Shown here: piece after piece, positions 8,422-62,403 of the stretch
How positions within the stretch are numbered: position 1 is the first letter of the stretch
How the letters are laid out: each line of letters starts with the position of its first letter
Source of the DNA: Candidatus Magasanikiibacteriota bacterium
GTDB taxonomy: Bacteria > Patescibacteriota > Patescibacteriia > Magasanikbacterales > UBA922
Length of the DNA: 64,000 nucleotides
NCBI GenBank assembly: GCA_049287025.1
Contig: JBAQFA010000005.1
Coordinates: 1,671-65,670, forward strand
Direction: 5' to 3'
Translations under genes and position numbers: made by a program
The notes under the pieces: generated by a model
Database searches by the model: none
The model's input: the letters and a program-made list of their open reading frames with translations, nothing else
Told to the model about the DNA's origin: nothing

Positions 8422-9288
8422 TTGCTTTTTTTATTTATTTTAGCTAAAATATCTATATTATTCTTTAGGCAAGTAAAAGCCTTATTTTTGGTTCAAAATA
8501 TGAAATCTGTCGAAGGAAAAATATGGCATGATGAAAAATATGGTGACTTTTTAATCAAGCGGGAATTGTCTAAAAAGAAAATTGCTGAATTGCGTGACCG
8601 TTTTAATCATCCAGTCAACCGTAGAGATTTAATAAAATTTGATGAACGCAAAAATCCTTTTGTTTTGTCACAAGTACCATTTGCAGATTTATTTCTTAGT
8701 GATATCAAGCCACCGCGTGAAGGTCAAAGGTTCGTAGAAGAATTTGAGGCATATAAAAAAAGAATAGCAGAATTTATAAAAGGCAAAAATTTTTTTGATT
8801 TAGGTTGCGGTGAAAATGATTTACTTATTGAGGATTTGGTAGAAGTATTAGCACAATATGGAGCAAATGAGTATGTAGGAGTCGACATATCTCCAAGGAG
8901 AGAAATTTATGATAAAGTTGAGAGACCTGATGGTAAAACTATGGAAATTTATGTTTTGAAAGAAGAAATGTTGAATTTTGTTCGTTCTATTCCAGATAAT
9001 TATGGAGGAAATGTTTTACTTTGTGGAATACAAGAAGATACACATGATGGCTATAATTCTGATTTAGTAAAGAAATATGTGGAGAATATAATTAGTGAAT
9101 TATATCGCATTATGAATACTGGAGATGTTATTATGATTTCAGGACCCTCATTCGAAACTATTAAAGGTTCATTAATTTTTAGTAAAAATAATACAGTAAT
9201 TGATAAAGATGGAAGAGTTTTGTTTATAAAAGAAGAAATTACTGGCGGCAAGGGGAGTGCCGATAGCGTTTATTATAAAAAAGTATAA
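8422..9288 (+). CDS. Hypothetical protein, possible class I SAM-dependent methyltransferase fold
   Basis: FFDLGCGENDL resembles methyltransferase motif I. The likely start is the internal ATG near 8497-8500 (MKSVEGK). Overlaps the leuS start. Confidence 0.45.
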   Translation: MLFLFILAKISILFFRQVKALFLVQNMKSVEGKIWHDEKYGDFLIKRELSKKKIAELRDRFNHPVNRRDLIKFDERKNPFVLSQVPFADLFLSDIKPPREGQRFVEEFEAYKKRIAEFIKGKNFFDLGCGENDLLIEDLVEVLAQYGANEYVGVDISPRREIYDKVERPDGKTMEIYVLKEEMLNFVRSIPDNYGGNVLLCGIQEDTHDGYNSDLVKKYVENIISELYRIMNTGDVIMISGPSFETIKGSLIFSKNNTVIDKDGRVLFIKEEITGGKGSADSVYYKKV

Positions 9289-12200
9289 TTATATGAAAAC
9301 ATATCAGGAATTTTTAAACAATCAAGGCGAAAAGAAATGGCAAAAATATTGGGAAGACAATAAAATTTTTGAAACCACAGAATCTTCGGACAAGGAGAAA
9401 TTTTATGGTCTGATAGAATTTCCTTATCCATCAGGGGCTGGTCTTCATGTTGGTCATCCGCGGCCTTTTACTGCTATGGATGTGATTTGTCGTAAAAAGA
9501 GGATGCAAGGCAAGAATGTTTTGTTCCCAATTGGTTTTGATGCTTTTGGTTTGCCCACAGAAAATTTTGCTATAAAAACTGGTCGTCCGCCAGCCGAAGT
9601 GACAGCCGAGAATATTGCCAATTTTACGCGCCAGTTAAAGATGTTGGGTTATAGCTTTGCTTGGGATAGAGTAGTAGACACTACTGATCCAAAATACTAC
9701 AAATGGACACAATGGATATTTTTACAATTATTTAAACATGGTTTGGCTTATAAAAAAGCCATGCCAATCAATTGGTGTATTTCTTGTAAAATTGGTTTGG
9801 CCAATGAAGAAGTTGTTGACGGTAAATGCGAACGTTGTGGTGGACCAGTAGAAAAGCGCAACAAAGAACAGTGGATGTTAGCAATTACAAAATATGCTGA
9901 TAAATTATTGCAAGGTTTGGAAACAGTTGATTATATTCCTCAAGCCAAGATTCAACAGCAGAATTGGATTGGAAGGTCTGAAGGTATTAATTTTAAACAC
10001 AAAGTAAAAGGCATGGATTTGGAATTTGAAGTTTATGATTCAATCCCGCAAACTTTCATGGCTCAGACTTTTGTGATTATTGCTCCAGAACATCCTTATG
10101 TTTTTGAAATGGTGAAAGGTACTGAGCGTGAAAAAGAGGTAATGGCCTTTGTGGAAAAAATAAAAAATAAAAAAGTTGGCGGAAAATTTGATATAGATAG
10201 TGATATGGAAGGAATTTTTACTGGTTGCTATTCAGAAAATTATTTGGGGATTGGTCGTGATTTACCAATTTGGGTAGCAAGTTTTGCTTTAATGGATTAT
10301 GGCACAGGCATTGTCGGTTGTAGTGCTCATGATGAGCGAGATTATAAGTTTGCCAAAATGTATGATTTACCATTGCATCCAGTATTGTTCCCCAAAGACA
10401 AAGAGTTGGCAGAAAAAGTTCGTAGTACAGAAATATTTTATCGTGAATCAGATGGCTTGTTAGAAGAGCCAATTGATTTTAAAGGTAGAAAGTGGGATGA
10501 AGTAAGATCTGATATTATTCAATATATTGAAGACAAAGGTTTTGGTAAAAAAGCAGTACATTACAAACTTCGCGATTGGGTATTTTCTAGACAGCGTTAT
10601 TGGGGTGAACCAATTCCACTGGTTTATTGTGAGAATTGTGCTAATAAAAAACCAAAAATATTATATATTCATGGAATTTATGGTGGTCCAGATGAAAATT
10701 GGGTACCGTGGTTTAAAAAAGCAATGGAAAATAAGGGATATGAGGTTTTGACTCCAGAATTACCAGACTCAGACAAATTAGTTGATGAAAAAAAATGGAT
10801 TGAAATATTAAAAAATTTACCAATTGATAAGGATGATAAGTTGTTTGTGATTGGTCATAGCTATGGCGCTAGATTTGCTTGTAAGTTTATCGAAGAGAGT
10901 GGAATGAAAGTGAAAAAGTTAATCATGGTTGGACCAACTGGCCCAAGTCAAACTGAAAATAATTATGCCAAATTGCGTGAAGTTGGTTGTAGTGAAGATT
11001 CAATAAAAAGTGTACAAGAATTAAGCAAAGAAAATTTTGATTGGAAAAAATTAAATTCATTGATTAGTAATACAGTAATTTATTTTTCAGATGATGATCC
11101 ATTCATTCCGTTAACCATGGAAGAAAGTTATAAAGAATTAAAACATACTACGAAAAATTTTGTTGGTAAAGGCCACTTTAATAAAAGAGCTGGTGTTTTG
11201 GAATTGCCAGAATTGTTAGAAGAATTTTCTGATGTTAAAAGACAAAAAGTTTTAATTATTCATGGTTTTACTGGTAGAGCTGACAAAAATTGGATGCCTT
11301 GGATGAAAGAAAAATTAGAATTAGCTGGATTTGAAGTGAGAGTTCCTACTATGACCACTACTGATCATCCCGTAATGGAAAAATGGCTAGAAGAACTTTT
11401 GCCACTAGTAAAAGATTTTGATGAGAATGATGTCATTATTGGACATAGTATTGGTGGTAGTACCGCTTTGCATTTGTTAGAACAAATGGAAAATAAAATA
11501 GGTCATCTGTATTTGGTAGCACCAGCAGTAGGAGAATTGGCCGATGAAGAAATTAAAAAGAAAAAAGCTAAAAAGCCAGAGAAAGATTATGACATGGTTA
11601 GGGCTTTTTGGGAAATGCCTATCATTTGGAATAAGATTTTGAAAAAAGTTAACCAGGCTAATGTATTGTATTCTAATACTGACGAAAGTATAAAATCATA
11701 TGGACATGAATTATGGCCTAATGATTGGCAAATAAAATTTTTAGGTAATCACGGTCATTTTGTGGATAAGGAGTATGACGTGTTGTTTGAAAATTTTGTA
11801 ACGGCCAAAAATACTGGCTGGATTCCACTTCCAGAATCAGAATTACCATTGGAATTACCCAAGGTAGAAAAATATGAACCAACTGACAATGGTGAGTCAC
11901 CTTTGGCTGTGATGACTGATTGGGTTAATACCAAATGTCCAGTGTGTGGTGGAGAAGCGAGACGTGAGACTGATACTATGCCAAATTGGGCTGGGAGTTC
12001 TTGGTATTATCTTGCGTATACAATGATGAAAGAAAAAAATGGTGAATATGTTTGGGATAGAGCCAAAATGGATTATTGGAATCCAGTGGATTGGTATAAT
12101 GGGGGAATGGAACATACGGTTTTACATTTGTTGTATTCTAGATTTTGGAATGAATTTTTGTTTGATATTGGACTCGTGCCAACTAGTGAACCATATAAAA

Positions 12201-13030
12201 AACGTACTTCACACGGGATGATTTTGGCGGCTGATGGTGAGAAAATGAGCAAGAGTCGGGGTAATGTAATTAATCCAGACGAAATGGTAGAGAAATTTGG
12301 GACTGATGCTTTCCGGACTTATATAATGTTTATGGGGCCGTTTGATCAGGCGGTAGCCTGGGACACGAATGGGGTTGTGGGCGTACGAAGATTTTTGGAA
12401 AAGGTGTGGAGCATTTTTGATTTTATAAGTGTAAGAAACAAACATTTTGGGAAAGGTGAATGGTGGCCTAGTGAACAGACAGATAAAAAACTTGCAAAAT
12501 TGTTGGAGAAGACCATAAAGAAAGTTGGGGAAGATGTAGAAAAATTATCTTTCAATACGGCTATTAGTCAGTTAATGATATTTGTAAATGGATATATTGG
12601 AGATGTGACAGATAGTTTTGGTAGTCTTAATGATCAAATTCAAAAAATAAAAGAAGAATCTGTCTCTAATCCGAGTCTTGCGAATAATACCGTTATATCT
12701 AAATTTGATTTTGAAAGGTTTATTAAATTACTTTCGCTTTTTGCTCCGCACATCGCCGATGAGATCTGGGAACGACTTGGTAACAAAGGAAGTGTATCAC
12801 AGCAAACTTGGCCAGAATATGATCCAGCGTTAATTATTGATGACGTGATTACTGTAGTGGCACAAGTAAATGGCAAAGTACGGGATGAATTTCAAGTGCC
12901 AGTAGATATTAGTGAAGAGGAAATTAAAACCATGGCTCTCGCTTCAGACAAAGTTCAGAAGTGGTTAGAAGGAAAAGAACCAAAAAAAGTGATTTATGTG
13001 AAGGGGAGACTAGTCTCAATAGTTGTCTAG
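9257..13030 (+). CDS. leuS: Leucyl-tRNA synthetase with a ~430-aa internal insertion of two tandem YdeN/RBBP9-type alpha/beta serine-hydrolase domains
   Basis: HVGH (HIGH) and KMSKS motifs, a CP1 editing domain (MDYGTGIVGCSAHDERDYKFAKMYDL) and a C-terminal anticodon-binding region. At 1257 aa it is far longer than the typical ~800-880. The extra segment at ~10646-11935 carries GHSYGA and GHSIGG nucleophile elbows. Confidence 0.9.
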   Translation: MPIAFIIKKYNYMKTYQEFLNNQGEKKWQKYWEDNKIFETTESSDKEKFYGLIEFPYPSGAGLHVGHPRPFTAMDVICRKKRMQGKNVLFPIGFDAFGLPTENFAIKTGRPPAEVTAENIANFTRQLKMLGYSFAWDRVVDTTDPKYYKWTQWIFLQLFKHGLAYKKAMPINWCISCKIGLANEEVVDGKCERCGGPVEKRNKEQWMLAITKYADKLLQGLETVDYIPQAKIQQQNWIGRSEGINFKHKVKGMDLEFEVYDSIPQTFMAQTFVIIAPEHPYVFEMVKGTEREKEVMAFVEKIKNKKVGGKFDIDSDMEGIFTGCYSENYLGIGRDLPIWVASFALMDYGTGIVGCSAHDERDYKFAKMYDLPLHPVLFPKDKELAEKVRSTEIFYRESDGLLEEPIDFKGRKWDEVRSDIIQYIEDKGFGKKAVHYKLRDWVFSRQRYWGEPIPLVYCENCANKKPKILYIHGIYGGPDENWVPWFKKAMENKGYEVLTPELPDSDKLVDEKKWIEILKNLPIDKDDKLFVIGHSYGARFACKFIEESGMKVKKLIMVGPTGPSQTENNYAKLREVGCSEDSIKSVQELSKENFDWKKLNSLISNTVIYFSDDDPFIPLTMEESYKELKHTTKNFVGKGHFNKRAGVLELPELLEEFSDVKRQKVLIIHGFTGRADKNWMPWMKEKLELAGFEVRVPTMTTTDHPVMEKWLEELLPLVKDFDENDVIIGHSIGGSTALHLLEQMENKIGHLYLVAPAVGELADEEIKKKKAKKPEKDYDMVRAFWEMPIIWNKILKKVNQANVLYSNTDESIKSYGHELWPNDWQIKFLGNHGHFVDKEYDVLFENFVTAKNTGWIPLPESELPLELPKVEKYEPTDNGESPLAVMTDWVNTKCPVCGGEARRETDTMPNWAGSSWYYLAYTMMKEKNGEYVWDRAKMDYWNPVDWYNGGMEHTVLHLLYSRFWNEFLFDIGLVPTSEPYKKRTSHGMILAADGEKMSKSRGNVINPDEMVEKFGTDAFRTYIMFMGPFDQAVAWDTNGVVGVRRFLEKVWSIFDFISVRNKHFGKGEWWPSEQTDKKLAKLLEKTIKKVGEDVEKLSFNTAISQLMIFVNGYIGDVTDSFGSLNDQIQKIKEESVSNPSLANNTVISKFDFERFIKLLSLFAPHIADEIWERLGNKGSVSQQTWPEYDPALIIDDVITVVAQVNGKVRDEFQVPVDISEEEIKTMALASDKVQKWLEGKEPKKVIYVKGRLVSIVV

Positions 13031-13130
13031 AATAGAACACAAAATTTACAAATTATTTCAAATTAACTCAAATATGATTTGCGAAAATTTGTTAAATTTG
13101 GGTGATTTGAGTTCTATTAATTAGGAGGGT

Positions 13131-14603
13131 ATGTTAGAAAAAATAATCAATTCAAAAAGCAAAACGTTTCTGACGCTTTGCTTTTCTTTTTTGTTAGGGA
13201 TTATTAGCGTATCACTTTTAGAATGGAAAATAGATTTTGTATATTTATATTTGGCATTATTTATTTTGGTGACATTTTTAATAATATTTTGGAAAGAGAA
13301 GGGAAAAAGATTTTTGATTTTTTGTTTTCTTGTTTTTTTGATAGGGGTGGGGAGATATTTAATAGCTTTTCCATTTTCAGAAATAGAGATTGGTAAACAA
13401 GATATTGTCGGTTATGTATCAGCCGAGCCAGATGTAAGAATGGACGGTGTACGTTATATAATCAAGATAAAAAATACACATAACAAAATACAGGATAATT
13501 TAATTGGAAAAAATGTTTATGTAAAGACCTTGCTTTATCCTAGATTCAACTATGGAGATACTTTGGAATTGAAATGTGATTTACAAAAACCAGAAATTAT
13601 TAATGATTTTCGCTATGATATGTATTTGGCTAGATATGGTGTATTTTCTGTTTGTGAAGATGCAAAGATTAAAAAAATCGGAAGCGGTGAAGGTAATAAT
13701 ATTCTTGCAGGAATTTTTAATTTGAAAAACGTCATTGCTGATAGAATAAATAAATTATGGCATGAACCCAATGCGAGTTTTATGGCTGGTTTGCTCTATG
13801 GTTATCGCGGGGGCTTGGGAGAACTAAATGACATGTTTAGCCGAACTGGTGTCACACATATTGTGGCCATTTCCGGGTATAATATTAGTTTGATCGCATC
13901 TATTTTAATTGCGATTTGTATTAATCTTTATATTCCGCGTAAAAAAGCCTTTTGGTTAATTACTGCTGGAATTATTTTGTTTGTGATTTTTACTGGGGCG
14001 AGTGCGTCGGTGGTGCGGGCTGGGATTATGGGTATTATAGTACTCCTCGCCAAACAAGTGGGTAGGACTTCGCAAGTCGGTAATGTTTTGGTTTTGACCG
14101 CAGTGGTTATGTCATTACAAAATCCGTTTATTTTACTTTGGGACGCTGGCTTTCAACTTTCATTTATTTCTACTCTAGGTTTGGTGTATATCACACCAGT
14201 GATTAGAAATTGGTTTGACAGAGTACCAGAATTTTTGGGCATTCGCGAATCATTAATTTCTACTTTGTCAGCCATTACGGCTACTCTGCCCTTAATATTA
14301 TTTCAGTTTGGGCGGTTATCAATTGTGGCGCCAATCGTGAATATCTTGATATTATGGATTATCCCGACTATAATGATGTTAGGCTTTTTTGCGGTTGTAA
14401 TAAGTTTTGTATTTATGCCTTTAGGTGAAATAATCGCTTGGATTGGTTGGGTGGGATTGCAGTATATTATAAAAGTGGTAGAATTTTTTGCGAGTTTGAA
14501 ATGGTCTGCCGTGGATTTGACTGTGCCGTGGTGGGGGATGATTTGTTTGTATTTAGTATTACTCTATTGGATAAGTGTAAAAAGGATTGAGCAAAATAAA
14601 TAA
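13131..14603 (+). CDS. comEC: ComEC/Rec2 N-terminal (DUF4131) plus competence membrane domain, lacking the metallo-beta-lactamase domain
   Basis: N-terminal TM/OB region and the competence-domain signature GVTHIVAISGYNISLIASIL with polytopic TM helices, 490 aa. Confidence 0.8.
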   Translation: MLEKIINSKSKTFLTLCFSFLLGIISVSLLEWKIDFVYLYLALFILVTFLIIFWKEKGKRFLIFCFLVFLIGVGRYLIAFPFSEIEIGKQDIVGYVSAEPDVRMDGVRYIIKIKNTHNKIQDNLIGKNVYVKTLLYPRFNYGDTLELKCDLQKPEIINDFRYDMYLARYGVFSVCEDAKIKKIGSGEGNNILAGIFNLKNVIADRINKLWHEPNASFMAGLLYGYRGGLGELNDMFSRTGVTHIVAISGYNISLIASILIAICINLYIPRKKAFWLITAGIILFVIFTGASASVVRAGIMGIIVLLAKQVGRTSQVGNVLVLTAVVMSLQNPFILLWDAGFQLSFISTLGLVYITPVIRNWFDRVPEFLGIRESLISTLSAITATLPLILFQFGRLSIVAPIVNILILWIIPTIMMLGFFAVVISFVFMPLGEIIAWIGWVGLQYIIKVVEFFASLKWSAVDLTVPWWGMICLYLVLLYWISVKRIEQNK

Positions 14604-31849: not shown

Positions 31850-33991
31850 ATGTCAGAAGGTGAAATAAATAAATCAATAGCAGAAGAGATTAGAAAAGAA
31901 AATACTCGCAAAACCATTGAAGCCGTGGATTTTTTTGTGAAACGCGATCTTTTGGGTGTTTCCGGACCGCTTACACCAGGCATTGAAGATTTTGTCCAAG
32001 CTGACAAAGACGGTACATTTTTAGTTGATATTACTAATTATAGAGGCTATTTAGAAAAAATTGGTTTTTTACCAGATCCTAATATTAGTGAAGAAAAACT
32101 AGAAGCTCCACTAATGGCAACCGGAACTGACGGCTTACACCCAGATATTAGGTTAGATGACCCCTTGTTAGAAACCAAAGGAACAGATTTAAGATTTGAA
32201 GAAGGCGCAGGAGAACATTCGGATTTTGGTAAAGAAAATATTAGAAGGACGCGTGTTTTTGTTGATGAATATAACGCTACGGCTAAAGATTTAGGGCCTT
32301 TAATTTTCAGATTTGAAGGTACACCACGTCCTGACCAAGTGCGCAGTTTGGATTATAAATGTTTTTTATTACCTCAAACTAAACAAATAGTATTAATGTG
32401 TGATCTACGTGGTGAGGCAACATTTATTTTGCATCTTACCGATGAATTAGTAGCTTCTGTTGATGAAGCGGATATAACCGAATCTTTGTCTCTGATAATT
32501 AAAAAGCTTGCTGGATTAGACGGCGACGAGAGTCAGAAACAAAGAGAAAATACAAAGCGAATTTTGCAATTTGATCGTCGTGGTTATAGTATTAAACGTT
32601 TAATGTTGTCGCCAGACGTTAGATTAGCTATCACGGATAAAGTGGCTCAGCATGCTAAAGATGCAATCCAAATTTTAAGAGATAGAACTGCGTCTAAACA
32701 TGGAGAAGCGAGGGCTTTGGATGATGATGCAGGCATAAAACAACTAGAGGGAACTGTCCCGGACGGAGTTTTAACTCGAGCTGAGATTAGGGATTTGCTT
32801 AGAGATGGTGGTTACAAAGCTAGATCTGAACAAAATATACAAACAGATCTATCACGTGTCGTAGAAGAATTAGAAGATAGTGACGGAGTTCCACATACTT
32901 TTAGAGATGGTAAATATTTTGATCTTGAAGTGGTATCTCGTCTAAAGGAAATTTATAAGTTGAGAGAAGAGCCGCCAGAAGGATGGGTAGGTTTACCAGA
33001 ATTAGCTAGAGATGCCTCTAAAATTATTGACAAAGAGGTTAATGATCACACGTTGTCTACTTATTTAGAAGGGGTAGCGGGGTTAAGTTATAACAAATTA
33101 AATGAGCAAGCACAACGTGAAGAACAAGTACTCGCTGCAGACGAATTAAAAAATTTAAGAGAGGATAGAGGTTATGGTTTTTTTGATATACCTAAAGGGC
33201 AACACAAGGGGCTTTATCTCCAACCAGATTTAGCTAATAAGATGAAAGAATTAGTAATAAAAAATGGGGGGGAGTCATTTGAGTTTGGTTATTGGGAAGT
33301 TGATTTGGCAAAAAAATTGCGAGAAGAGTATGGTTATGACTTTGCTGATGTGGTTAAAAAAGAAATGGATTGGGCCAAAAGTTTGGCACCTGGTCAGCGA
33401 GAGTATTATTTAGTTTTGGCTGGAAGAGGTAAAAAAGAAAAACTTACTCCTTTTTTTGTAGAGAAAATTTACAGAGCAATTCAAGAGAGTGTAAAAGAAG
33501 ATCAAGAATTTTTACAAACTGAGTTTGAAGGGACTAAACCAAGGAGTAACATGTCAATCCTAGATGAATTTGGTATTAGTAGAAGTAATTTAGAGACTCT
33601 TACTGAAAAAGTAATAAAACGTTATAGTACCAAACCAGAAGGGAAAAAATATTTTTCACGTTTAGTATTTGTTACCCATGGTAAAGGCAAAAGACCAACA
33701 ATAGAAAAATATTTTAGTGCCGAGTTAACGGTGGCTTTAATAGCAGAGATTGGTGAGTTTCTAAAATTGCACAAAGAAATGATAAATTTCTTTCAACTTT
33801 CTAAGATGCTTGGATTAGATCGTAATATTGTGAAAGAAACTATTTTGGCTTATGTTTCATTACATAAGGAAGATGCGGAAGTTGTTGGTGGATTTAGAAG
33901 TCAAGAAAGTAGTGAAAAAGGAGGTAGACCGAGGTATTTTTGTAATAATGAGTTAGCTATCAAAATTTTAAAAGAAGCAGGTAAAATTTAA
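31850..33991 (+). CDS. Large hypothetical protein (713 aa), no recognisable domain
   Basis: Uninterrupted 2.1-kb ORF. It is hydrophilic and charged, and I could not find any family motif in it. Confidence 0.6.
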   Translation: MSEGEINKSIAEEIRKENTRKTIEAVDFFVKRDLLGVSGPLTPGIEDFVQADKDGTFLVDITNYRGYLEKIGFLPDPNISEEKLEAPLMATGTDGLHPDIRLDDPLLETKGTDLRFEEGAGEHSDFGKENIRRTRVFVDEYNATAKDLGPLIFRFEGTPRPDQVRSLDYKCFLLPQTKQIVLMCDLRGEATFILHLTDELVASVDEADITESLSLIIKKLAGLDGDESQKQRENTKRILQFDRRGYSIKRLMLSPDVRLAITDKVAQHAKDAIQILRDRTASKHGEARALDDDAGIKQLEGTVPDGVLTRAEIRDLLRDGGYKARSEQNIQTDLSRVVEELEDSDGVPHTFRDGKYFDLEVVSRLKEIYKLREEPPEGWVGLPELARDASKIIDKEVNDHTLSTYLEGVAGLSYNKLNEQAQREEQVLAADELKNLREDRGYGFFDIPKGQHKGLYLQPDLANKMKELVIKNGGESFEFGYWEVDLAKKLREEYGYDFADVVKKEMDWAKSLAPGQREYYLVLAGRGKKEKLTPFFVEKIYRAIQESVKEDQEFLQTEFEGTKPRSNMSILDEFGISRSNLETLTEKVIKRYSTKPEGKKYFSRLVFVTHGKGKRPTIEKYFSAELTVALIAEIGEFLKLHKEMINFFQLSKMLGLDRNIVKETILAYVSLHKEDAEVVGGFRSQESSEKGGRPRYFCNNELAIKILKEAGKI

Positions 33992-49009: not shown

Positions 49010-50962
49010 TTATTTGTTTGATGTTTTATTCAAAATTTTTTCTGTCAGACCTTTTGGTAATAATGTTATGTTTGGCAATTCTTTTAGATCTACCCAGACT
49101 AGCTTGTAAGAATTATTAGTAGTGCTTCTCTCTCTTTCTTCGTCACCTAGCTTTGGTTCACCAGAAATATTCTCCGCAAAATAATAATATTCGTCACGGC
49201 CATTAATATTAAAACAAAGTGGTATTTGTTCAGGAATAGTAAAATCAAGATCAGTTTCTTCTTTGCCTTCACGTTTGGCTGTGGCTAATATATTTTCATC
49301 AAAATCTTCTTTGGTTCCACCAGGTGGAGTGAAAAAATGCTGGGAAAATTTTTGTCTTTCTATTAATAAAATTTTGCCGTCTTTAATAGGTAAAATAGCA
49401 CCTCGGGGCAAGTCCCAACCCACACCTTTTTGGGTGACAGTAATAAAGTCAATTATTTTTAAACCATTGAGACTTAATTTATTATGCGCTTCCATAATAG
49501 GATAAAGAGTTTGCGTGCGCATCAGGTCAGCATTTGGTTTGGTATTATTGTATTTTATAATATTGAAATCAGGTCGTTTGTTGTATTTTGGTTCGTGAAG
49601 TGAAGGAATTTCTTTGGTAACTCGTTGAATAATTTGCGCGCCATCTTGGATTTTGATTAATGTTTGATTTTCCAAATTTATATCTAATAACGCCATGAGG
49701 TGGGATTCGAATGTGGTTATTTGGTTTGTCATCCCGAATCCCCCGACGAAGGGGGTGAGGGATCCCTTGTCTTTGGATTTAAACATTGTATTATTACTAA
49801 TTCCATTGTTTAATGTTTGGGAAAGGGATCCCCTCCTCGGAGGATCTTCGACCTCGCCCTGTGTCGGGCTCGGGATGACAAGTGATTGAAGTTGTGATTC
49901 GTAAGTCGTTGATGCTGGTTGTCTGGCATTAATTTCAATTAAATATAGTTTGCCATTTTTTCCCGCCTTCGCTGAAGCTTCGGCGGACAAGTCATCAACC
50001 ACAACATCAACTCCAAACAAACCTTTCCAACCTTGTGATCTTAATTTTTCGCCAATATCATTTACAATTTTGTTGTATTGTTTTATTTGATCTTCATTTA
50101 AATATTTATTAGCAAATGACCAATCATTGCCAATGGTAGTAAATTTATTATCAGTAAAAGGTTTGAGTCCAGTAATTTGATAGCTAATATTACCAACTAA
50201 AATTTTATTTTTTGTGACGACATTGTTGCTAGTAAACATTGGTCCAGAAATATATTCCGTGATTCTAACTGGGCGATCGGGAAATTTTTCTTTAATCTCA
50301 TCCAGCTGACTCTCTGATTCAATCAAAATAGTGCCAAGGCCAGTATGAGCGCGGTTGAATTGGATAATAAAAGGCTTACAAAGCTCACGAGGCTTGCTAC
50401 CTGCCTGCGCAGGCAGGGGCTCACAAGGCCAAACGATATTTTTACATAAATCAACTCTGTGTTTAGGTAAATATTTTTGTAATTCCCCAAGCCATTCTAG
50501 TCCAGAGATTTTTTCTTCTATTTTGTTTGACAGTTCGGCTGGTGGGTTGAGTAGTTTCCAATTATTTTCCTGACAGATTTTTTCTATTTGAGTGGTGGGT
50601 TTGAAGACTACCACGGTAAGTTCATTCCGATCCGCCGATGAGGTGGAGAGGAATCTTTCGGAGTTATTTGTTGTTGTGGTATGATTGTCTTTTGTAATTT
50701 GTTTGTAAAAGGCTTCGAAAGATCCCTCGTCAGTCAGTCGTCTGACTTCCTCGGGATGAACCAACAATTCTAACAATTCCCAAGTATCCAGCTGTTCATT
50801 ACTTTCAATCAAAAGGACATTATCATATCCTTCAGCTACAGACTTGGCAAAAGGCGTAGAATTTGAGATAATATGATAACCTGGGGTATTTAAATTCAGC
50901 CCTAAAGCCCGCTCAATATCGCGGGTGACGTAAATGATTGGGTTTTGGGTTAGATCTATCAT
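49010..50962 (-). CDS. ATP-grasp (RimK-like) ligase fused to a C-terminal NUDIX hydrolase domain
   Basis: ATP-grasp blocks PFIIQFNRAHTGLGTILI and GLFGVDVVVDD...GKLYLIEINARQPAS. C-terminal Nudix box GGTKEDFDENILATAKREGKEETDL. The likely start is MIDLTQNP at 50962, since the track ORF to 51049 overlaps the divergent gene. Carries three in-frame palindromic insertions. Confidence 0.7.
   Translation of the reverse strand: MIDLTQNPIIYVTRDIERALGLNLNTPGYHIISNSTPFAKSVAEGYDNVLLIESNEQLDTWELLELLVHPEEVRRLTDEGSFEAFYKQITKDNHTTTTNNSERFLSTSSADRNELTVVVFKPTTQIEKICQENNWKLLNPPAELSNKIEEKISGLEWLGELQKYLPKHRVDLCKNIVWPCEPLPAQAGSKPRELCKPFIIQFNRAHTGLGTILIESESQLDEIKEKFPDRPVRITEYISGPMFTSNNVVTKNKILVGNISYQITGLKPFTDNKFTTIGNDWSFANKYLNEDQIKQYNKIVNDIGEKLRSQGWKGLFGVDVVVDDLSAEASAKAGKNGKLYLIEINARQPASTTYESQLQSLVIPSPTQGEVEDPPRRGSLSQTLNNGISNNTMFKSKDKGSLTPFVGGFGMTNQITTFESHLMALLDINLENQTLIKIQDGAQIIQRVTKEIPSLHEPKYNKRPDFNIIKYNNTKPNADLMRTQTLYPIMEAHNKLSLNGLKIIDFITVTQKGVGWDLPRGAILPIKDGKILLIERQKFSQHFFTPPGGTKEDFDENILATAKREGKEETDLDFTIPEQIPLCFNINGRDEYYYFAENISGEPKLGDEERERSTTNNSYKLVWVDLKELPNITLLPKGLTEKILNKTSNK
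49728..49879. repeat. Palindromic miniature element, best-preserved copy with perfect 10-bp outer inverted repeats, in-frame in the ATP-grasp-NUDIX gene
   Basis: GTCATCCCGAATCCCCCGACGAAGGGGGTGAGGGATCCC-(AT-rich core)-GGGAAAGGGATCCCCTCCTCGGAGGATCTTCGACCTCGCCCTGTGTCGGGCTCGGGATGAC. Encodes EVEDPPRRGSLSQTLNNGISNNTMFKSKDKGSLTPFVGGFG. Confidence 0.7.
50388..50440. repeat. Short GC palindrome (CCTGCCTGC|GCAGGCAGG) inserted in-frame in the ATP-grasp-NUDIX gene
   Basis: GCTCACGAGGCTTGCTACCTGCCTGCGCAGGCAGGGGCTCACAAGGCC. Encodes LPAQAGSKPREL. The core is shared with the 35658-35680 palindrome. Confidence 0.5.
50626..50758. repeat. Palindromic miniature element copy inserted in-frame near the 5' end of the ATP-grasp-NUDIX gene
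   Basis: TCCGATCCGCCGATGAGGTGGAGAGGAATCTTTCGG-(AT-rich core)-CGAAAGATCCCTCGTCAGTCAGTCGTCTGACTTCCTCGGGATGAA. Confidence 0.6.
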
Positions 50963-50994
50963 AGTGAGGGTAATTATACTTAAAAAAATAGTTT

Positions 50995-53250
50995 TTGACA
51001 AGCAATATGGACAGTATGGATTTGAAAAAACACGATAGAGTTGATTCATATCAAATTGAGTTAGAATTAGCTTTTTCTGTTTGGTATCAGGGAGTAAAAA
51101 CTGGACGTAAAGATTTTGGAGTAGGCTGGCTAAAGAAAAATGGATTTAATAATCTTGCTGTCTGGTGTGAAGAAAATAGTGAACAGTTTGTTGAATGGAA
51201 AGTCTTAAGAGAGCTAAAAGAGGCTTTTTTGGTTTGGCATTCTTTGCCAGAAGCAGGCCGTGGTAATTTTAATGCGACTTGGTTGCAACAAAATGGATTT
51301 TCTCGTGTAGATAAAGGGCTGCGCAAGTTAGATGGTGTTGAAGTTGTCCAAAAAAGTGATTCAGCGGAATTAAGAAAAGCTTACACTGTCGACAAGGTTG
51401 ACTGGACAGAGGAATCAGCCGTAAAAAAAATGGATGAAATGTATGAAGTTTTTTTGAAGGAAAAAGATAATAAATTTGATAAAAAAGGAAAACCAATACG
51501 CTTCAATAGATATTGGCTTAAATCAAAAGGTTTACCATCATTGGTAAGGTGGGCAAATACGCAGCCGGGTGGTTTGGAAGTATTGAACACCAAGTGTAGA
51601 AACAAAGAAGTTGCTAATTTATTTGAAAGAAGTAGGACGGAGTGGAATGAGACTTTGGCAGTTGCTGATTTAGAAGTTGCTTATAAAGAATGGCTGGACG
51701 AGCCGGCGGATACGCGAGGCAATTTTAATCAAAAAAGGATACAAAGAAAACATTCAGGACTGACAAGTTGGGTCTGGGATAATGGCGGAATTGATAAGTA
51801 TGTTGCTTTATCAAAAAATGATTCTTTAAGGGCTGCATTTTCAAAAGATAGAATATTTTGGGATGATAAAAGAGTTTTAGCTGAATTAGATAAAGCCTTT
51901 GAAAAATGGAAGTCGGTTGTAGAGGTGGATGGTAGAACTGGTAAACAAAGGAAATTTAGTGCTTTTTGGATTCGAGATAATTATAATCAAGGTTTAAGCA
52001 GATGGATTAGTATGCACAGTGGATTGAATCATTGTGTTGCTTTAAGTACTAATCAAGAATTAAGAAAATATTTAAATTTAGATAACCAAGTTGTCACAAC
52101 TGTGACTGTTGAAGGCTTGGTAGATAAACCAGAAGAGGTTGAAGAAAAAACCAATGAACCAGGAGAAATTCATGTTGGAGTTTTTCCTAGTGAAATGATT
52201 GATCTTTCGGGTATTGGTTCCAATTTACTTCCTCAAATAAGGGTTGCGAGTCTTCAGGAAAGGGAAGATAGAGGATCAACAGATGTTGATTTGTCACAAA
52301 TGACAGCTGATCCAAATCCGTTACAGAAATTACGTTTTGATATGGCTACAGCCAGACAAAGTGGTGTCTGGGATGATGAATTAATAAAAAGATATATAGA
52401 ATTGCATTCTTATTTGCCAGATTTTATTTTTCACGGTCTTAGCGTAGAACATATTGTGGAATTAGCCACAGCTGGCAAGATAAAAACCCCAAAGGCTGTT
52501 TTGTCCGTCGGTGGAGGGGCTTATGGGGAATTAATAGCTTGGCAAAGAAAATTAAAAGCAGAGGCGCCAATGGTTTTTAATTTGGACAGTTCTGCATTAA
52601 TGTTGGAAATGGCTAAGCCTGTTTTATCCGAGAAATATAGTATTCAGCAAAACGATTTTAATGGCGTGGTAGGTGATATGAGAAATTTTAAGGGTGATTA
52701 TTTGAGTAATTTTAAACAGGGTGATTTTGATTTAATAGAATGTTCAGCGTTAGACAATTTAACTGAAGCACAATTGCCAAAATTTGTTGAAGAAATAGTT
52801 GATGTTTTACAAAATGGACAAATGGTACAGTTGATTGCCAGAAAGCCAATACCAAATGCTGTTTGGCACATTTTGGAAACTATGGGTTGTGTGATACTAA
52901 CTCCACCAAATGCCAAATTAGATGCAGATCTTAGCGGTGTAGTAGGTGGGGATGTAAAAAAGAGAATTAAACAAAAGTTGCGAGATGGGGGCGGGTTTTA
53001 TTTATTGGCGCAAAAATTTGAAAAAACAATTAATCCAGATGATAATAAGAAAAGGTTTTTAGATCAATTATCGCAAGCACAAGATATGGAGACCGGAGAT
53101 CTTGGTTTGTTATTATTAGATTTAGCAAAATTGTATCCAAATTATGGCGATATTCCAGAGGAAGAATTGGCAAGAGTTGGATTTCGGCGAGAAATTATTA
53201 AAGTGAATAAAAAAGGTGCAAGTAACATAGTACGAATTGTCAAAGTTTAA
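50995..53250 (+). CDS. Large hypothetical protein with five or more ~50-aa N-terminal tandem repeats and a C-terminal class I methyltransferase-like region
   Basis: Repeats of the form hxxAhxxW...G[RK]xxF...xWL..NGF...L..W. The C-terminal region has VLSVGGGAYG (motif I-like), NLDSS and DLIECSALDNL. 751 aa. Confidence 0.55.
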   Translation: MTSNMDSMDLKKHDRVDSYQIELELAFSVWYQGVKTGRKDFGVGWLKKNGFNNLAVWCEENSEQFVEWKVLRELKEAFLVWHSLPEAGRGNFNATWLQQNGFSRVDKGLRKLDGVEVVQKSDSAELRKAYTVDKVDWTEESAVKKMDEMYEVFLKEKDNKFDKKGKPIRFNRYWLKSKGLPSLVRWANTQPGGLEVLNTKCRNKEVANLFERSRTEWNETLAVADLEVAYKEWLDEPADTRGNFNQKRIQRKHSGLTSWVWDNGGIDKYVALSKNDSLRAAFSKDRIFWDDKRVLAELDKAFEKWKSVVEVDGRTGKQRKFSAFWIRDNYNQGLSRWISMHSGLNHCVALSTNQELRKYLNLDNQVVTTVTVEGLVDKPEEVEEKTNEPGEIHVGVFPSEMIDLSGIGSNLLPQIRVASLQEREDRGSTDVDLSQMTADPNPLQKLRFDMATARQSGVWDDELIKRYIELHSYLPDFIFHGLSVEHIVELATAGKIKTPKAVLSVGGGAYGELIAWQRKLKAEAPMVFNLDSSALMLEMAKPVLSEKYSIQQNDFNGVVGDMRNFKGDYLSNFKQGDFDLIECSALDNLTEAQLPKFVEEIVDVLQNGQMVQLIARKPIPNAVWHILETMGCVILTPPNAKLDADLSGVVGGDVKKRIKQKLRDGGGFYLLAQKFEKTINPDDNKKRFLDQLSQAQDMETGDLGLLLLDLAKLYPNYGDIPEEELARVGFRREIIKVNKKGASNIVRIVKV

Positions 53251-58725: not shown

Positions 58726-61700
58726 ATGTTTTCTGATTATAAAAAGATATTATTTTTCTCTCTAGTGCTTTTTTTAAGTTCATTTTTTTGTTTGTCAGTT
58801 TTGGCAGAGGAACAAAGTGGTAATTTGGATGTGAATTATTCTATTCCTGGACAATGTGGTAATGGAATTCAAGAATGGAATGAGTCGTGTGACAATGGAA
58901 TTGATAATGGTGTTTGTCCAAAATCATGTAGTAATTCCTGTACAGATAATGGTAATTGTGGTGGCGATGGTTGTACGGGTGATTGTGAGTCACCTGTAGT
59001 AAAAGATGTTACCTCAATTCCTAGCCAGACAAGTGTGACTGTTAGTTGGCTCACAACTGATGATGTTGGTGTCTCTAGTGTTGGATTTAAATATGGTACT
59101 ATTTATGGTACTTATGATTTGTCACCAGCATCAGAAAATAATTCTTCCGCATCTTTGTCGGGACTAACACCTGATACGATTTATTATTTTCAGATTACTG
59201 CTAGTGATGCTAGTGGTAAAAAAGGTTATGGTTATGGCAGTTTTCGTACCCTAGTCCAACCAGTAGATACTACAGCACCTAATGTTTATAATATCACTGT
59301 TTCTGCTGGTATTACCACATCGTCTATATCTTTTTCAACTGATGAATCAGCCACAAGTGAAATATTGTATGGCACGACAATTGCTCGTGATTTGTCTGCC
59401 GTAGTGAGTAATGGTTTTGTTGCAAATCATAGTATTGATTTACAAAATTTATTACCCAATACTACTTATCATTATATAATTAGAGCGGCTGATAGTCTTG
59501 GTAATACCACGACTACTTTGGATGCGACATTTACTACTCGACCAGATAGAATCGCTCCAAGCAATGTGAGTAATTTTAGATTGAGTACCTCTACCCAAGC
59601 AATAAATTTGAGTTGGACCAATCCAAATTTACAGACAATGCCAGATTTTGTGGGGGTGAAAATTTTACGCAAAATTGGTTCTTATCCTACAAGTTTTGAT
59701 GATAGTAGTGCTGTGCTTGTTTATAACAATTCTGGGTCTTCACATCTTGACAATTCAGTCAGTTATAACACGCATTATTATTATACAGCTTATACTTATG
59801 ACAGTTCGGGAAATTATAGCAGTGGCGCGCAGGCAAATATTATTTCTGCTTCACAAATTTTTACTCCGCAAGAAGTGACTAATTATTATATTACCACTTC
59901 TACTGGAGCCATTATTTTGAATTGGGATAATCCCACTGCCCAAGTCATGCCTTATTTTCAAAGTGTAAAAATTTTACGTAAAGCTGGTAGTGCACCAACT
60001 AATTACAATGATTCTAGCGCAGTGGAAGTTCACAATAGTCCCACTAGCTATTTGGAAGATAGAAATAACTTAGTATTAAGTCAGCGTTATTATTATAAAA
60101 TTTTTACTTTTGATGGTACAAATTATAGTTCAGGTGTGGTTCTTAATATTATTTATAACCAACCAAGAAATGTAGAAATTTGTGCAAATAATATTGATGA
60201 TGATAATAATGGTTTGGTAGATTGTGCTGATTCTGCTTGTGCGAATTTATCAATTTGTTCGGAAAATAATTGTTCTAATGGGGTTGATGACGATACTGAT
60301 GGTTTGGTAGATTGTTCAGATACTCTAGATTGTTCCAATGATTCAGCTTGTAGAACTACACCACCAGAAAATTGTAGTAATCAGGTAGATGATGATGGTG
60401 ATGGAGCAATTGATTGTACTGATAGTGATTGTACAAAATTTTGTGAACAATGTATTGGTGATAATTGTGGTGGTGATGAGACAGCTCAGTGTAGTGATGG
60501 TAATGATAATGATGTTGACGGACTCATAGATTTTCCCCTTGACTCAGGTTGTCTTAGTTTGGACGATGATGATGAATATAATCCGCCCTTGGTAACTACC
60601 TCGACAATTAATCTGGTTGACGTTATTTTTTCAACTGGTAATGATAAAATAATTTTGGCACCACAAAATAATATTGTGGTTGGTTTATCAGACTTTCCTC
60701 TTACAATTAGTTTTCCAACTACTAAAATAATTTTGCCAATAAAAAGTTTTGTCTTAAAAATTGATGGTGGCGATCAACATAATTTAATAAAAAATTCTGC
60801 GGGAAATTTATTTTATACTGATATTTCATTTCCAGCTGTTGGTCAAAAAGAGGCTTTTTTGGAAATTAGTTATGAAAATGGTTCTTTTGATTATGTTAGA
60901 TTTGTTATAGAAAGTGTAAATTGGGGGAGGGTAGTGGATGATAAAAATAGTAATATCACAGATGTTTCTCTTACTTTGCAAAATAATGCTGGTGATGTTA
61001 TTAACTTGCAAACTTATGGACAATCTAACCCTATAAATTCTAATGATAGTGGTCTCTATGGTTGGATGGTGCCAAATGGACAGTATAAAATTTTGGCTAG
61101 CAGTGAAGGTTATTACGAAAGAGAAACTGGTGTTTTTGCTGTTAGCAATAACATTATTAATAAAAAAATTGATTTAGTATCAGTACCGCCCACTTTGGAG
61201 GAAGTGATTGATCCAAATGCTTCTCTCAGTGAAAATATTTTGAATGTAGCAGAAAATTTGGCGCAAAAGACCAAAACTTTGGCACAAATGACTGCTTTGG
61301 GAGTAAGAGATTTTTCTGATAATCCAAATGTAGAGCAATCAGCGCAAAATATAGTAGCGCCAACGGCAATCGGTGTAGTAGTGGCATCAGCTTTACCATT
61401 TTTGAATTTTGGTAATTTATTAGCTTTATTACGTTTGTTATTTTTACAACCTTTATTGCTTTTGGGAAAACGTAAACGAGTAAAGTGGGGTCAAATCTAT
61501 AATTCACTTAATAATTTACCAGTGGATTTGGCCATTGTGCGTCTAATGAACGCTGATACAAATAAAATAGTAAAAACCCAAGTGACTGACACCAAAGGGC
61601 GTTATGCTTTTATCATATCAGAAGCGGGAAAATATAAGATTGATGTGCAAAAAAATGATTTTGTGTTTCCTTCAGTTTTGCTAAAAGAATACCAGACTGA

Positions 61701-62403
61701 TGGACAAAAGATGGATCTTTATCATGGAGAAATCATTGAAGTTACTGAAGCTGGGGCAGTAGTAGCAGCCAATATCCCTATGGATATGGTTGGAGAAGTT
61801 GCCGTGATACCGTGGCGTTTGAAATGGGAAAAAACTGGCAGATTGATCCAAAAAATATTATCACCACTAGGTTTTTTGTTTGCCTTAGTTTCTTATTATA
61901 TCACCCCAAAGTGGTATATTGGCGTTTTATTAATTCTTCACGTAGTACTTTGGTTCTTATTTAAACGTTTGGCTAAGCCAATTAGGCTAAAAGGTTGGGG
62001 AATTGTTTATGATGCTCTTGATAAAAAACCAGTCACTAGAGCGATTGCGCGCTTGTTCAATTTACAATTAAACAAATTAGTTTCAACGCAAATTACAGAT
62101 AAACAGGGGAGATACTATTTTTTGGCTGGTAGTGGCAAATATTTTATTACGGTTGAACACGAAGGTTATGAAACTGCCCATACTGAGACTATAAATTTGC
62201 AAGGCGATGGGGCAGATGTAATTGAAGAAAAAGTTAGTTTGAATCACAAGATTGATGATCAACTACCATCTGCCGTTGCGCCAGTTATTTTAGATGATGG
62301 TGTTGAGTCAAAAAGTGATGTTTTGGAACAGTCAAAACCAGTAGATAAAACAGACCAAGAAATTAAACCGCCACCACCAGAAAATGACAATATTTTTGGT
62401 TAA
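58726..62403 (+). CDS. Giant surface protein: signal peptide, fibronectin-III-like repeats, four MopE-like Cys/Asp putative metal-binding repeats, carboxypeptidase-regulatory-like (prealbumin fold) domains and TM segments
   Basis: CxNxIDDDxNGLVDCxDSxC repeats at ~60180-60560 (NIDDDNNGLVDCADSAC, GVDDDTDGLVDCSDTLDC, QVDDDGDGAIDCTDSDC, GNDNDVDGLIDF). CarbopepD_reg-like VRLMNADTNKIVKTQVTDTKGRYAF and ARLFNLQLNKLVSTQITDKQGRYYF. 1225 aa. Confidence 0.8.
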   Translation: MFSDYKKILFFSLVLFLSSFFCLSVLAEEQSGNLDVNYSIPGQCGNGIQEWNESCDNGIDNGVCPKSCSNSCTDNGNCGGDGCTGDCESPVVKDVTSIPSQTSVTVSWLTTDDVGVSSVGFKYGTIYGTYDLSPASENNSSASLSGLTPDTIYYFQITASDASGKKGYGYGSFRTLVQPVDTTAPNVYNITVSAGITTSSISFSTDESATSEILYGTTIARDLSAVVSNGFVANHSIDLQNLLPNTTYHYIIRAADSLGNTTTTLDATFTTRPDRIAPSNVSNFRLSTSTQAINLSWTNPNLQTMPDFVGVKILRKIGSYPTSFDDSSAVLVYNNSGSSHLDNSVSYNTHYYYTAYTYDSSGNYSSGAQANIISASQIFTPQEVTNYYITTSTGAIILNWDNPTAQVMPYFQSVKILRKAGSAPTNYNDSSAVEVHNSPTSYLEDRNNLVLSQRYYYKIFTFDGTNYSSGVVLNIIYNQPRNVEICANNIDDDNNGLVDCADSACANLSICSENNCSNGVDDDTDGLVDCSDTLDCSNDSACRTTPPENCSNQVDDDGDGAIDCTDSDCTKFCEQCIGDNCGGDETAQCSDGNDNDVDGLIDFPLDSGCLSLDDDDEYNPPLVTTSTINLVDVIFSTGNDKIILAPQNNIVVGLSDFPLTISFPTTKIILPIKSFVLKIDGGDQHNLIKNSAGNLFYTDISFPAVGQKEAFLEISYENGSFDYVRFVIESVNWGRVVDDKNSNITDVSLTLQNNAGDVINLQTYGQSNPINSNDSGLYGWMVPNGQYKILASSEGYYERETGVFAVSNNIINKKIDLVSVPPTLEEVIDPNASLSENILNVAENLAQKTKTLAQMTALGVRDFSDNPNVEQSAQNIVAPTAIGVVVASALPFLNFGNLLALLRLLFLQPLLLLGKRKRVKWGQIYNSLNNLPVDLAIVRLMNADTNKIVKTQVTDTKGRYAFIISEAGKYKIDVQKNDFVFPSVLLKEYQTDGQKMDLYHGEIIEVTEAGAVVAANIPMDMVGEVAVIPWRLKWEKTGRLIQKILSPLGFLFALVSYYITPKWYIGVLLILHVVLWFLFKRLAKPIRLKGWGIVYDALDKKPVTRAIARLFNLQLNKLVSTQITDKQGRYYFLAGSGKYFITVEHEGYETAHTETINLQGDGADVIEEKVSLNHKIDDQLPSAVAPVILDDGVESKSDVLEQSKPVDKTDQEIKPPPPENDNIFG

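Follow-up and report, generated by a model that had tools for sequence, protein, structure and literature searches.

The stretch analysed here, 64,000 nucleotides of Candidatus Magasanikiibacteriota contig JBAQFA010000005.1 (hereafter the window), carries on its forward strand a leucyl-tRNA synthetase (LeuRS) gene, leuS, whose product holds two serine hydrolase domains nested inside the synthetase. The leuS open reading frame (ORF) runs uninterrupted from a GTG at 9257 to 13030 and encodes 1257 amino acids. The true start is probably the ATG at 9293 (M13), giving a 1245-aa product, because the upstream ORF ends at 9288. The product scored 890 bits with the NCBIfam model of bacterial LeuRS (TIGR00396, leuS_bact; cut-off 548.4), the insert dividing the match into two stretches. 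Its Pfam families are tRNA-synt_1, PF13603 (the editing domain of LeuRS), Anticodon_1 and Ser_hydrolase (PF06821). The first half of the catalytic core (9293..9961, +) contains the class I signature HVGH (aa 64–67) and the ZN1 cysteines C174, C177, C191 and C194. RQRYWG is found at 445, and the second half of the core, with the anticodon-binding and C-terminal domains (11948..13030, +), contains KMSKS (aa 996–1000, 12242–12256). The leuS product is a complete bacterial-type LeuRS. GC content is even over the whole gene, and the gene order IF-2 ... leuS-comEC is shared with the related contig L001, which fits an orthologous housekeeping locus. We read the gene as the genuine housekeeping leuS of an ultrasmall, Magasanikbacteria-type bacterium of the candidate phyla radiation (CPR). 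A sequence-only reading of the window had already placed a 1257-aa leuS ORF at 9257–13030 and listed HVGH, RQRYWG, the two CxxC halves of the knuckle, KMSKS and the elbow, Asp and His motifs of two hydrolases; the ORF call, Pfam and TIGR00396 agreed with the former, and all of the motifs are present as placed.

The insert interrupts the second zinc knuckle. The first half of the knuckle, C458-E-N-C461 (10628..10639, +), aligns to C439/C442 of T. thermophilus LeuRS and the second half, C894-P-V-C897 (11936..11947, +), to C484/C487, four cysteines that we take to be ligands of the second zinc. A zinc-binding insertion, 'Zn2', is drawn in the aminoacylation domain of N. gonorrhoeae LeuRS (PMC9424281). 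Alignment to the T. thermophilus structure 1h3n placed the insert between C442 and G443, and the TIGR00396 match breaks at model position 436, after aa 463. The insert spans approximately aa 464–853 (nt 10646 to ~11815), or ~389 aa. The segment that follows, GWIPLPESELPLELP...NTK (aa 854–893, nt 11816–11935), is ordinary LeuRS aligning to T. thermophilus G443–T483; this canonical stretch, GWIPLPESELPLELPKVEKYEPTDNGESPLAVMTDWVNTK (11816..11935, +; T. thermophilus LeuRS 443–483), covers TIGR00396 positions 429–473. The sequence-only reading had described an insert of ~430 aa (10646–11935) inside the CxxC...CxxC knuckle. Its location was confirmed by the alignment to 1h3n, but the last 41 aa of the claimed span are canonical LeuRS.

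An intein or a mobile insertion was ruled out. No intein, Hint or homing-endonuclease family was found among the Pfam matches of the leuS product, and the junction residues are not intein-like, the insert starting with KKPKIL and ending with ...TAKNT|G. These two observations support the earlier description of the insert as an in-frame domain fusion.

The inserted residues form two serine hydrolase domains. Domain 1 (10649..11233, +; HMM envelope 465–660) carries the triad Ser535 (10859–10861, in GHSYG), Asp614 (11096–11098, in DDDPF) and His640 (11174–11176, in GHF). Domain 2 (11234..11812, +; envelope 662–850) carries Ser731 (11447–11449, in GHSIG), Asp809 (11681–11683, in NTDES) and His834 (11756–11758, in GHF). 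Pfam Ser_hydrolase (PF06821) matched the two stretches with 104.6–108.6 bits against a gathering cut-off of 22. When compared by sequence with solved structures, domain 1 found human RBBP9 (2qs9/9fcr, E 1e-7) and domain 2 found B. subtilis YdeN (1uxo, E 4e-12); Ser75/Asp138/His165 of RBBP9 align to Ser535/Asp614/His640 of domain 1. Both triads sit in the invariant columns of an alignment of 153 homologues, embedded and free together, in which Ser is kept in 151/153 sequences, Asp in 149/153 and His in 151/153.

We modelled each hydrolase domain separately with AlphaFold2 on homologue alignments, because MAFFT places each single-domain homologue on one domain only. The models were confident for both domain 1 (predicted local distance difference test score 93.6, predicted TM-score 0.90) and domain 2 (90.1 and 0.90). 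In Foldseek searches of the PDB, RBBP9 (7oex, 9fcr, 2qs9) and YdeN led for domain 1 (E ~1e-13, TM 0.72–0.86); for domain 2 YdeN led (TM 0.82/0.85, root-mean-square deviation 2.1 Å), with RBBP9 also among the leaders. A chance match can be discounted because the E-values are 1e-30 or better and both domains fold confidently. The insert is a nested pair of RBBP9/YdeN-type serine hydrolases, each with a complete Ser-Asp-His triad. Thus, the hydrolase identity proposed in the sequence-only reading was borne out by PF06821, AlphaFold2 and Foldseek, the HMM and structure searches that it had named as a check, and its triads aligned in sequence with those of RBBP9 and YdeN.

That reading had also called the two units a tandem pair, and a recent tandem duplication would be one way to form it. 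This origin was ruled out: the units share only 29% identity and fall into separate clades of hydrolases embedded in LeuRS. Domain 1 groups with a clade that we call type 1 (P0002, L001, L003, L083, P0158 and P0013, a free protein); for domain 2 it is a second clade, type 2 (P0006–P0011, P0155–P0157, L084 and L085). Among all sequences retrieved, the window protein is the only one with a type 1 plus type 2 tandem.

The CP1 editing domain (9962..10546, +; PF13603, 142 bits) belongs to a variant subfamily. In the alignment to T. thermophilus LeuRS its threonine-rich peptide reads DSIPQT (10037–10054, +) in place of TTRPDT, with the changes T247D, T248S, R249I and D251Q; T252 is kept, HDERD (from 10328, +) is retained, and the GTG motif has a one-residue deletion. 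The claim that all canonical LeuRS elements are intact therefore stands for HVGH, KMSKS and the knuckle and fails for the CP1 peptide. The same DS[IV]PQT subfamily occurs in 13 clusters that are 59–78% identical to the window CP1, among them L087, an 814-aa LeuRS with no hydrolase insert. Because the variant is conserved in these 13 clusters, the window CP1 is probably functional but altered. Ordinary LeuRS matches with a readable motif showed TTRxDT in 81/81 cases; a non-canonical peptide was seen in 3 of ~20 insert-bearing LeuRS with CP1 visible, versus 0/81 ordinary ones. We considered the idea that CP1 has decayed and that the hydrolases compensate for it. The conserved DS[IV]PQT subfamily and its presence in the insert-free L087 weaken this idea, as does the fact that most insert-bearing LeuRS keep TTRPDT.

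Three further observations concern CP1 variants and their hosts. A second variant, SAHFE[SA]F, was found in P0005, P0274 and P0279. The L087 gene (L087:3-2444) yields its 814-aa LeuRS, with a DSVPQT CP1, only when UGA is read as sense (9 in-frame UGA, code 25); the surrounding genes are fragmented under code 11, pointing to a Gracilibacteria/Absconditabacteria-type organism. On a 1.47-Mb contig (L086:4399-6800, ERZ25039465 contig_22498) LeuRS is spread over three called genes of 91, 337 and 238 aa, the 337-aa gene encoding a CP1 of the SAHFES type; the three stay separate when UGA is read as sense. This LeuRS may be split or decaying, and it adjoins toxin-like genes (Cytotoxic, NTase/HEPN-type).

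The closest relative of the window LeuRS in the metagenome scan was L083 (Ga0172379_10026763, L083:3609-5768), and identity to it changes abruptly along the gene. The N-terminal catalytic core is 92–97% identical in amino acids, the strand after CP1 82%, domain 1 89% and the C-terminal flank 85%, versus 37–38% for CP1. Domain 2 is absent from L083, where NLNSGWIPLSESELP comes directly after domain 1. At the DNA level, homology covers 9335–9973 (88%) and 10514–11233 (87%) and ends exactly at the end of domain 1; none was found over 9974–10513, the CP1 region. The breakpoints are thus 9973/10514 and 11233. We also estimated the ratio of nonsynonymous to synonymous divergence (dN/dS) against L083 by the Nei-Gojobori method. 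The catalytic core gave dN/dS 0.034 (dS 0.78) and domain 1, the hydrolase domain covered by this comparison (domain 2 is without a close relative), gave 0.089 (dS 0.61). Domain 1 is under strong purifying selection. CP1 gave 0.47 with a dS of 1.45 (flanks ~0.7), near saturation, which fits replacement by a foreign CP1 and not relaxed selection.

Comparison with L083 and other CPR LeuRS shows that the gene was built in modules. The type 1 hydrolase already occupied the loop in the common ancestor with L083. The type 2 hydrolase, which stands alone in the same loop of other CPR LeuRS, was added behind it, and CP1 was exchanged for the DS[IV]PQT variant. The leader of domain 2, VKRQK, resembles the KKKQK that precedes type 2 domains elsewhere. 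The simplest history would start from an L083-like LeuRS with a type 1 hydrolase, gain a type 2 module behind it and, separately, swap CP1.

We then asked how widely such insertions occur. With the insert as query, a full HMMER scan (E<=1e-3) returned 2007 relatives among 1.84 billion cluster representatives; ~30 of the best 150 were long proteins, mostly LeuRS. LeuRS made up ~26/34 multidomain matches, a share obtained with a query that bore short LeuRS flanks. A further profile search, of a collection of 5.8 billion proteins, added more. One match is named 'leucyl-tRNA synthetase/predicted alpha/beta hydrolase family esterase' by JGI; NCBI names others (Patescibacteria, Wirthbacteria, Magasanikbacteria) 'alpha/beta fold hydrolase, partial'. 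We mapped the hydrolase envelope of each protein against LeuRS anchor motifs and found hydrolase-bearing CPR LeuRS in at least 40 sequence clusters, with four insertion sites. Site A, the zinc-knuckle loop used in the window, accounts for 31 sequences plus 3 probable ones, and site B, from the CP1 HDxRD motif to RQRYWG, for 8. Site C, from NWIG to the threonine-rich peptide, and site C', before NWIG, are represented by one sequence each (P0012 and P0005). Examples with a single hydrolase are L001 (GCA_043821725.1), L003, L083, L085, P0006–P0027 and P0155–P0164. In most LeuRS with an insert, CP1 retains the canonical TTRPDT.

The only other two-hydrolase LeuRS among those retrieved is P0012 (1169 aa). 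Its tandem hydrolases lie between NWIGKSEG and TTRPDT, with a NUDIX domain after CP1; they are 57% identical, and judged by their sequences the pair is a recent duplication. A Magasanikbacteria LeuRS of 810 aa (P0167) has no insert, so the hydrolase insertion is patchy and not lineage-wide. The sequence-only reading had stated that it knew of no such architecture and had asked whether the insertion is lineage-wide. The two-type tandem is indeed seen only here, but single-domain versions exist in at least 40 clusters; the insertion recurs in CPR LeuRS, but patchily.

The synthetases accept other domains as well. NUDIX inserts occur in the same CPR LeuRS set after CP1 (P0006, P0012, P0018), and a Ham1/ITPase-like insert (P0023, P0103) and a weak nucleotidyltransferase-like one (L084:2600-5269) occur at the start of CP1. 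Inserts of ~130 aa at site A (P0165, P0014) had no match in a Pfam search. Judged by these sequences, CPR LeuRS is a hotspot for nested domains, of which the serine hydrolase is only one kind. In a GTDB-wide DNA scan, nearly all other relatives of the hydrolase were free-standing proteins of ~190 aa from CPR bacteria and DPANN archaea. The exceptions were two Saccharibacteria contigs with the hydrolase in isoleucyl-tRNA synthetase (IleRS; L057:2753-6865 and L056:1-2910); the 1371-aa Nanosynbacter enzyme of L057 carries a GNAT domain and PF06821 just before the CP1 WTTTPWT peptide. Fusions of the family with other partners were found too: adenylate kinase in P0101, an inositol-monophosphatase-family domain in P0058 and a peptidase-like alpha/beta hydrolase of the S9/S33 type in P0004. 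Among 76 loci of free-standing homologues, a class Ia aminoacyl-tRNA synthetase (aaRS) lies nearby in 1/76, and the only conserved neighbour found was a Peptidase_S51 gene, which adjoins the free-standing copy in 3/59 loci (L005, L017, L024).

Annotation of these genes is often fragmentary. L001 (JBDRCM010000012.1) holds an intact 1042-aa LeuRS ORF with one hydrolase domain (L001:4579-7707). NCBI calls only its C-terminal 568 aa, from MVHCEKCASKK, as 'alpha/beta fold hydrolase' and leaves the N-terminal 1.4 kb uncalled. Several further database entries of hydrolase-bearing LeuRS are likewise 'partial'.

The window gene could in principle be a chimeric metagenome assembly of leuS fragments from different populations, or a decaying pseudogene. 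It is a three-way mosaic relative to its known relatives, and a look-up in public assemblies found no record of the exact 1245-aa product. An independent contig, L091 (JBAQOB010000151.1, GCA_049304355.1, 2177 bp), comes from a metagenome-assembled genome at NCBI labelled Candidatus Magasanikiibacteriota, a phylum within Patescibacteria/CPR. It is 100% identical to window positions 11358–13534 and confirms the path from inside domain 2 through the C-terminal part of LeuRS into comEC; the junctions at 10646 and 11233 fall outside it. The single unbroken 3.77-kb reading frame across every junction, the uniform composition and the intact motifs and triads all speak against an artefact, as does this perfect identity from inside domain 2 into comEC. 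The type of N-terminal junction recurs in P0002, L001, L003 and L083, and the best matches of CP1 and domain 2 are 77% and 59% identical, none of them exact, so no donor population is evident. We therefore consider an artefact very improbable. A real fusion with active hydrolases is, in our view, highly likely.

What might the hydrolases do? The nearest characterised protein is human RBBP9, an aminopeptidase that favours aromatic residues and works only on substrates with a free alpha-amine (PMC8866121). RBBP9 has also been identified as an enzyme that activates valacyclovir, an L-valyl ester, by hydrolysis (Shenoy et al. 2020, cited in PMC7730578). By analogy with RBBP9, the modules may hydrolyse alpha-aminoacyl esters or amides whose alpha-amine is free; the likely substrates would be small and diffusible, for example peptide N-terminal residues or aminoacyl esters. 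LeuRS probably still charges tRNALeu, and the hydrolase modules are probably catalytically active. LeuRS would then be a permissive, constitutively expressed scaffold in an amino-acid-auxotrophic organism, and not a second, geometry-dependent tRNA-editing site. A working LeuRS that serves as scaffold for active alpha-aminoacyl ester/amide hydrolases with small diffusible substrates is the reading that we think probable; for the narrower statement, a small-molecule aminoacyl/peptide hydrolase tethered to LeuRS, we see the chances as evenly balanced. We favour small substrates because the domain occurs at four structurally different LeuRS sites, because NUDIX, Ham1 and other small-molecule enzymes are found in those loops too, and because most insert-bearing LeuRS keep a canonical CP1. 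The fusion of a free homologue to an S9/S33-type domain (P0004) and the Peptidase_S51 neighbours lend weak support. Several points weigh on the other side. We know of no activity measurement on a bacterial PF06821 protein, and the substrate class is extrapolated from human RBBP9 at 20–24% identity. The bias towards LeuRS (and IleRS) hosts is striking and could reflect a specific tie to aminoacyl-tRNA to which the scaffold idea gives too little weight. Several insertion sites abut CP1, and in the window protein the extra module comes together with a remodelled CP1. Free homologues lack conserved gene neighbourhoods, which makes the peptidase hints weak; with a class Ia synthetase in 1/76 loci, these neighbourhoods do not separate small substrates from editing. 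Finally, the junctions at 10646 and 11233/11234 lie outside the coverage of L091, which starts at 11358.

An alternative that we regard as unlikely is that the hydrolases form an extra, CP1-independent proofreading or rescue site. Acting in cis or in trans, they would deacylate aminoacyl-tRNALeu that is mischarged or N-blocked, or cleave misactivated aminoacyl-adenylate. They would then be a new kind of aaRS editing domain. The sequence-only reading had raised mischarged or aminoacyl-ester substrates as a possibility. RBBP9 chemistry suits an aminoacyl ester with a free alpha-amine, and two class Ia editing enzymes, LeuRS and IleRS, have captured the domain recurrently and independently. Sites B, C and C', and the IleRS site before WTTTPWT, lie in or beside CP1; the window protein joins an extra hydrolase to a CP1 lacking T247, T248, R249 and D251, and a non-canonical threonine-rich peptide was seen in 3/~20 insert-bearing LeuRS versus 0/81 ordinary ones. 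However, most insert-bearing LeuRS have a canonical TTRPDT CP1, and the DS[IV]PQT variant, conserved in 13 clusters and present in the insert-free L087, is not simply a decayed CP1. Four insertion sites are also hard to square with a site that must receive the CCA end and argue, if anything, against a geometry-dependent editing role, and NUDIX, Ham1, NTase-like and unassigned domains occupy the same loops. We know of no alpha/beta hydrolase that edits aminoacyl-tRNA. The broader proposal, that the RBBP9/YdeN-type hydrolases captured by CPR LeuRS and IleRS represent an unrecognised class acting on aminoacyl-tRNA, N-blocked aminoacyl-tRNA or aminoacyl-adenylate and supply a second editing or rescue activity, seems to us doubtful. 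If it were true, the type 2 module would accompany a remodelled CP1 site in the window protein, and the widespread free-standing bacterial and archaeal PF06821 proteins would gain a physiological substrate class. The hydrolases might instead be pure passengers in permissive LeuRS loops, with a job unrelated to amino acids or translation (a general esterase, for example), the fusion being near-neutral or serving co-expression only. Consistent with this, the same loops host NUDIX, Ham1, NTase-like and ~130-aa unassigned inserts, close relatives such as the 810-aa Magasanikbacteria LeuRS do without an insert, adenylate kinase and an inositol-monophosphatase-like protein carry the hydrolase as well, and free homologues are unlinked to aaRS genes (1/76 loci). 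The independent capture of at least three to five hydrolase clades, at four sites of one host protein, exceeds what neutral drift would lead one to expect; domain 1 is under strong purifying selection, and alpha-aminoacyl compounds are the substrates of the sole family member whose substrate class is known. We therefore judge the passenger explanation improbable and retain the tethered hydrolase of small aminoacyl compounds as our preferred reading.

Aminoacyl-tRNA synthetases are known to gain domains, the CP1 editing domain being one example and the domains appended to eukaryotic enzymes another, and such additions often mark new functions. Here, CPR bacteria with minimal genomes have put a serine hydrolase, catalytically intact by sequence, into LeuRS and IleRS repeatedly and independently. 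If the hydrolases are coupled to LeuRS chemistry, organisms unable to make amino acids would have a new way of controlling translational quality or of obtaining amino acids, and bacterial YdeN-type proteins would gain a first functional handle. Even as passengers they would document domain-level recombination in an essential gene, with a CP1 swap and the stacking of two hydrolase types, and would point to permissive LeuRS loops usable for protein engineering. There is also a practical consequence: gene callers mis-annotate hydrolase-bearing leuS as a partial 'alpha/beta fold hydrolase'.

Around leuS, a 288-aa ORF lies directly upstream (8422–9288, +) and overlaps the GTG-9257 reading. It had no Pfam match, but a methyltransferase-type motif resembling DLGCGEN is present; other genes stand at this position in L083 and L001. 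An Rfam search of the whole window gave zero matches, hence no T-box or other leader RNA upstream of leuS, and no tRNA genes were found in the 64 kb. Elsewhere in the window, long ORFs of 713 aa (31850–33991, +), 679 aa (49010–51049, −) and 751 aa (50995–53250, +) had no Pfam family at E<=1e-8. A 1225-aa ORF (58726–62403) showed only CarboxypepD_reg/SdrD_B-type repeats and is probably a surface protein.

Among known systems, the hydrolase domains are closest to RBBP9 and YdeN (PF06821; PDB 2qs9, 7oex, 1uxo), the best structural neighbours of both. They share the minimal alpha/beta hydrolase fold of ~190 aa, the GHSxG nucleophile elbow, the triad at homologous positions and the N-terminal IHG...NW.PW motif. 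The RBBP9 alpha-amine ligand Glu108 aligns to the acidic D581 of domain 1, in a lid region where the alignment is of low confidence. In contrast to the known members, which are free-standing, two such domains are nested inside another enzyme in the window, and they are only 18–24% identical to RBBP9 and YdeN. The host resembles bacterial LeuRS with CP1 (T. thermophilus 1h3n/2byt, E. coli 4aq7, N. gonorrhoeae 6q89) in its full domain set and conserved zinc-knuckle cysteines, and CP1 itself shows that the Rossmann fold of a class Ia synthetase can take an inserted hydrolytic domain. It differs from these enzymes by ~389 extra residues in the C442|G443 loop and by a CP1 of the DS[IV]PQT rather than the TTRPDT type.

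A parallel exists in the saccharibacterial IleRS named by NF040702 ('isoleucine--tRNA ligase, N-acetyltransferase domain-containing'), also a CPR class Ia synthetase with an extra catalytic domain. The Nanosynbacter enzyme of L057 (1371 aa) adds PF06821 just before the CP1 threonine-rich peptide, a hydrolase that the NF040702 name does not mention. Unlike the window LeuRS, the saccharibacterial enzyme is another synthetase, with another insertion site and one hydrolase domain. The window protein scored 60.4 bits against NF040702 (ileS_w_GNAT; cut-off 1999) and is an analogue, not a member. Our search of the literature on LeuRS, IleRS or aaRS combined with CPR, Saccharibacteria, hydrolase, NUDIX or fusion found no description of a hydrolase-bearing LeuRS or IleRS. 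The sequences themselves are already in public databases under automatic, often fragmentary names; the hydrolase insertions in CPR LeuRS and IleRS, apparently undescribed in the literature, are a case of domain accretion in aaRS. The nearest counterparts of the window protein are the single-hydrolase CPR LeuRS, which have the same host enzyme, the same loop in ~31 clusters and the same two hydrolase clades, but one domain where the window protein has a type 1 plus type 2 tandem. In P0012 the two domains sit at the start of CP1 instead. The window protein is thus the most elaborate member among those retrieved.

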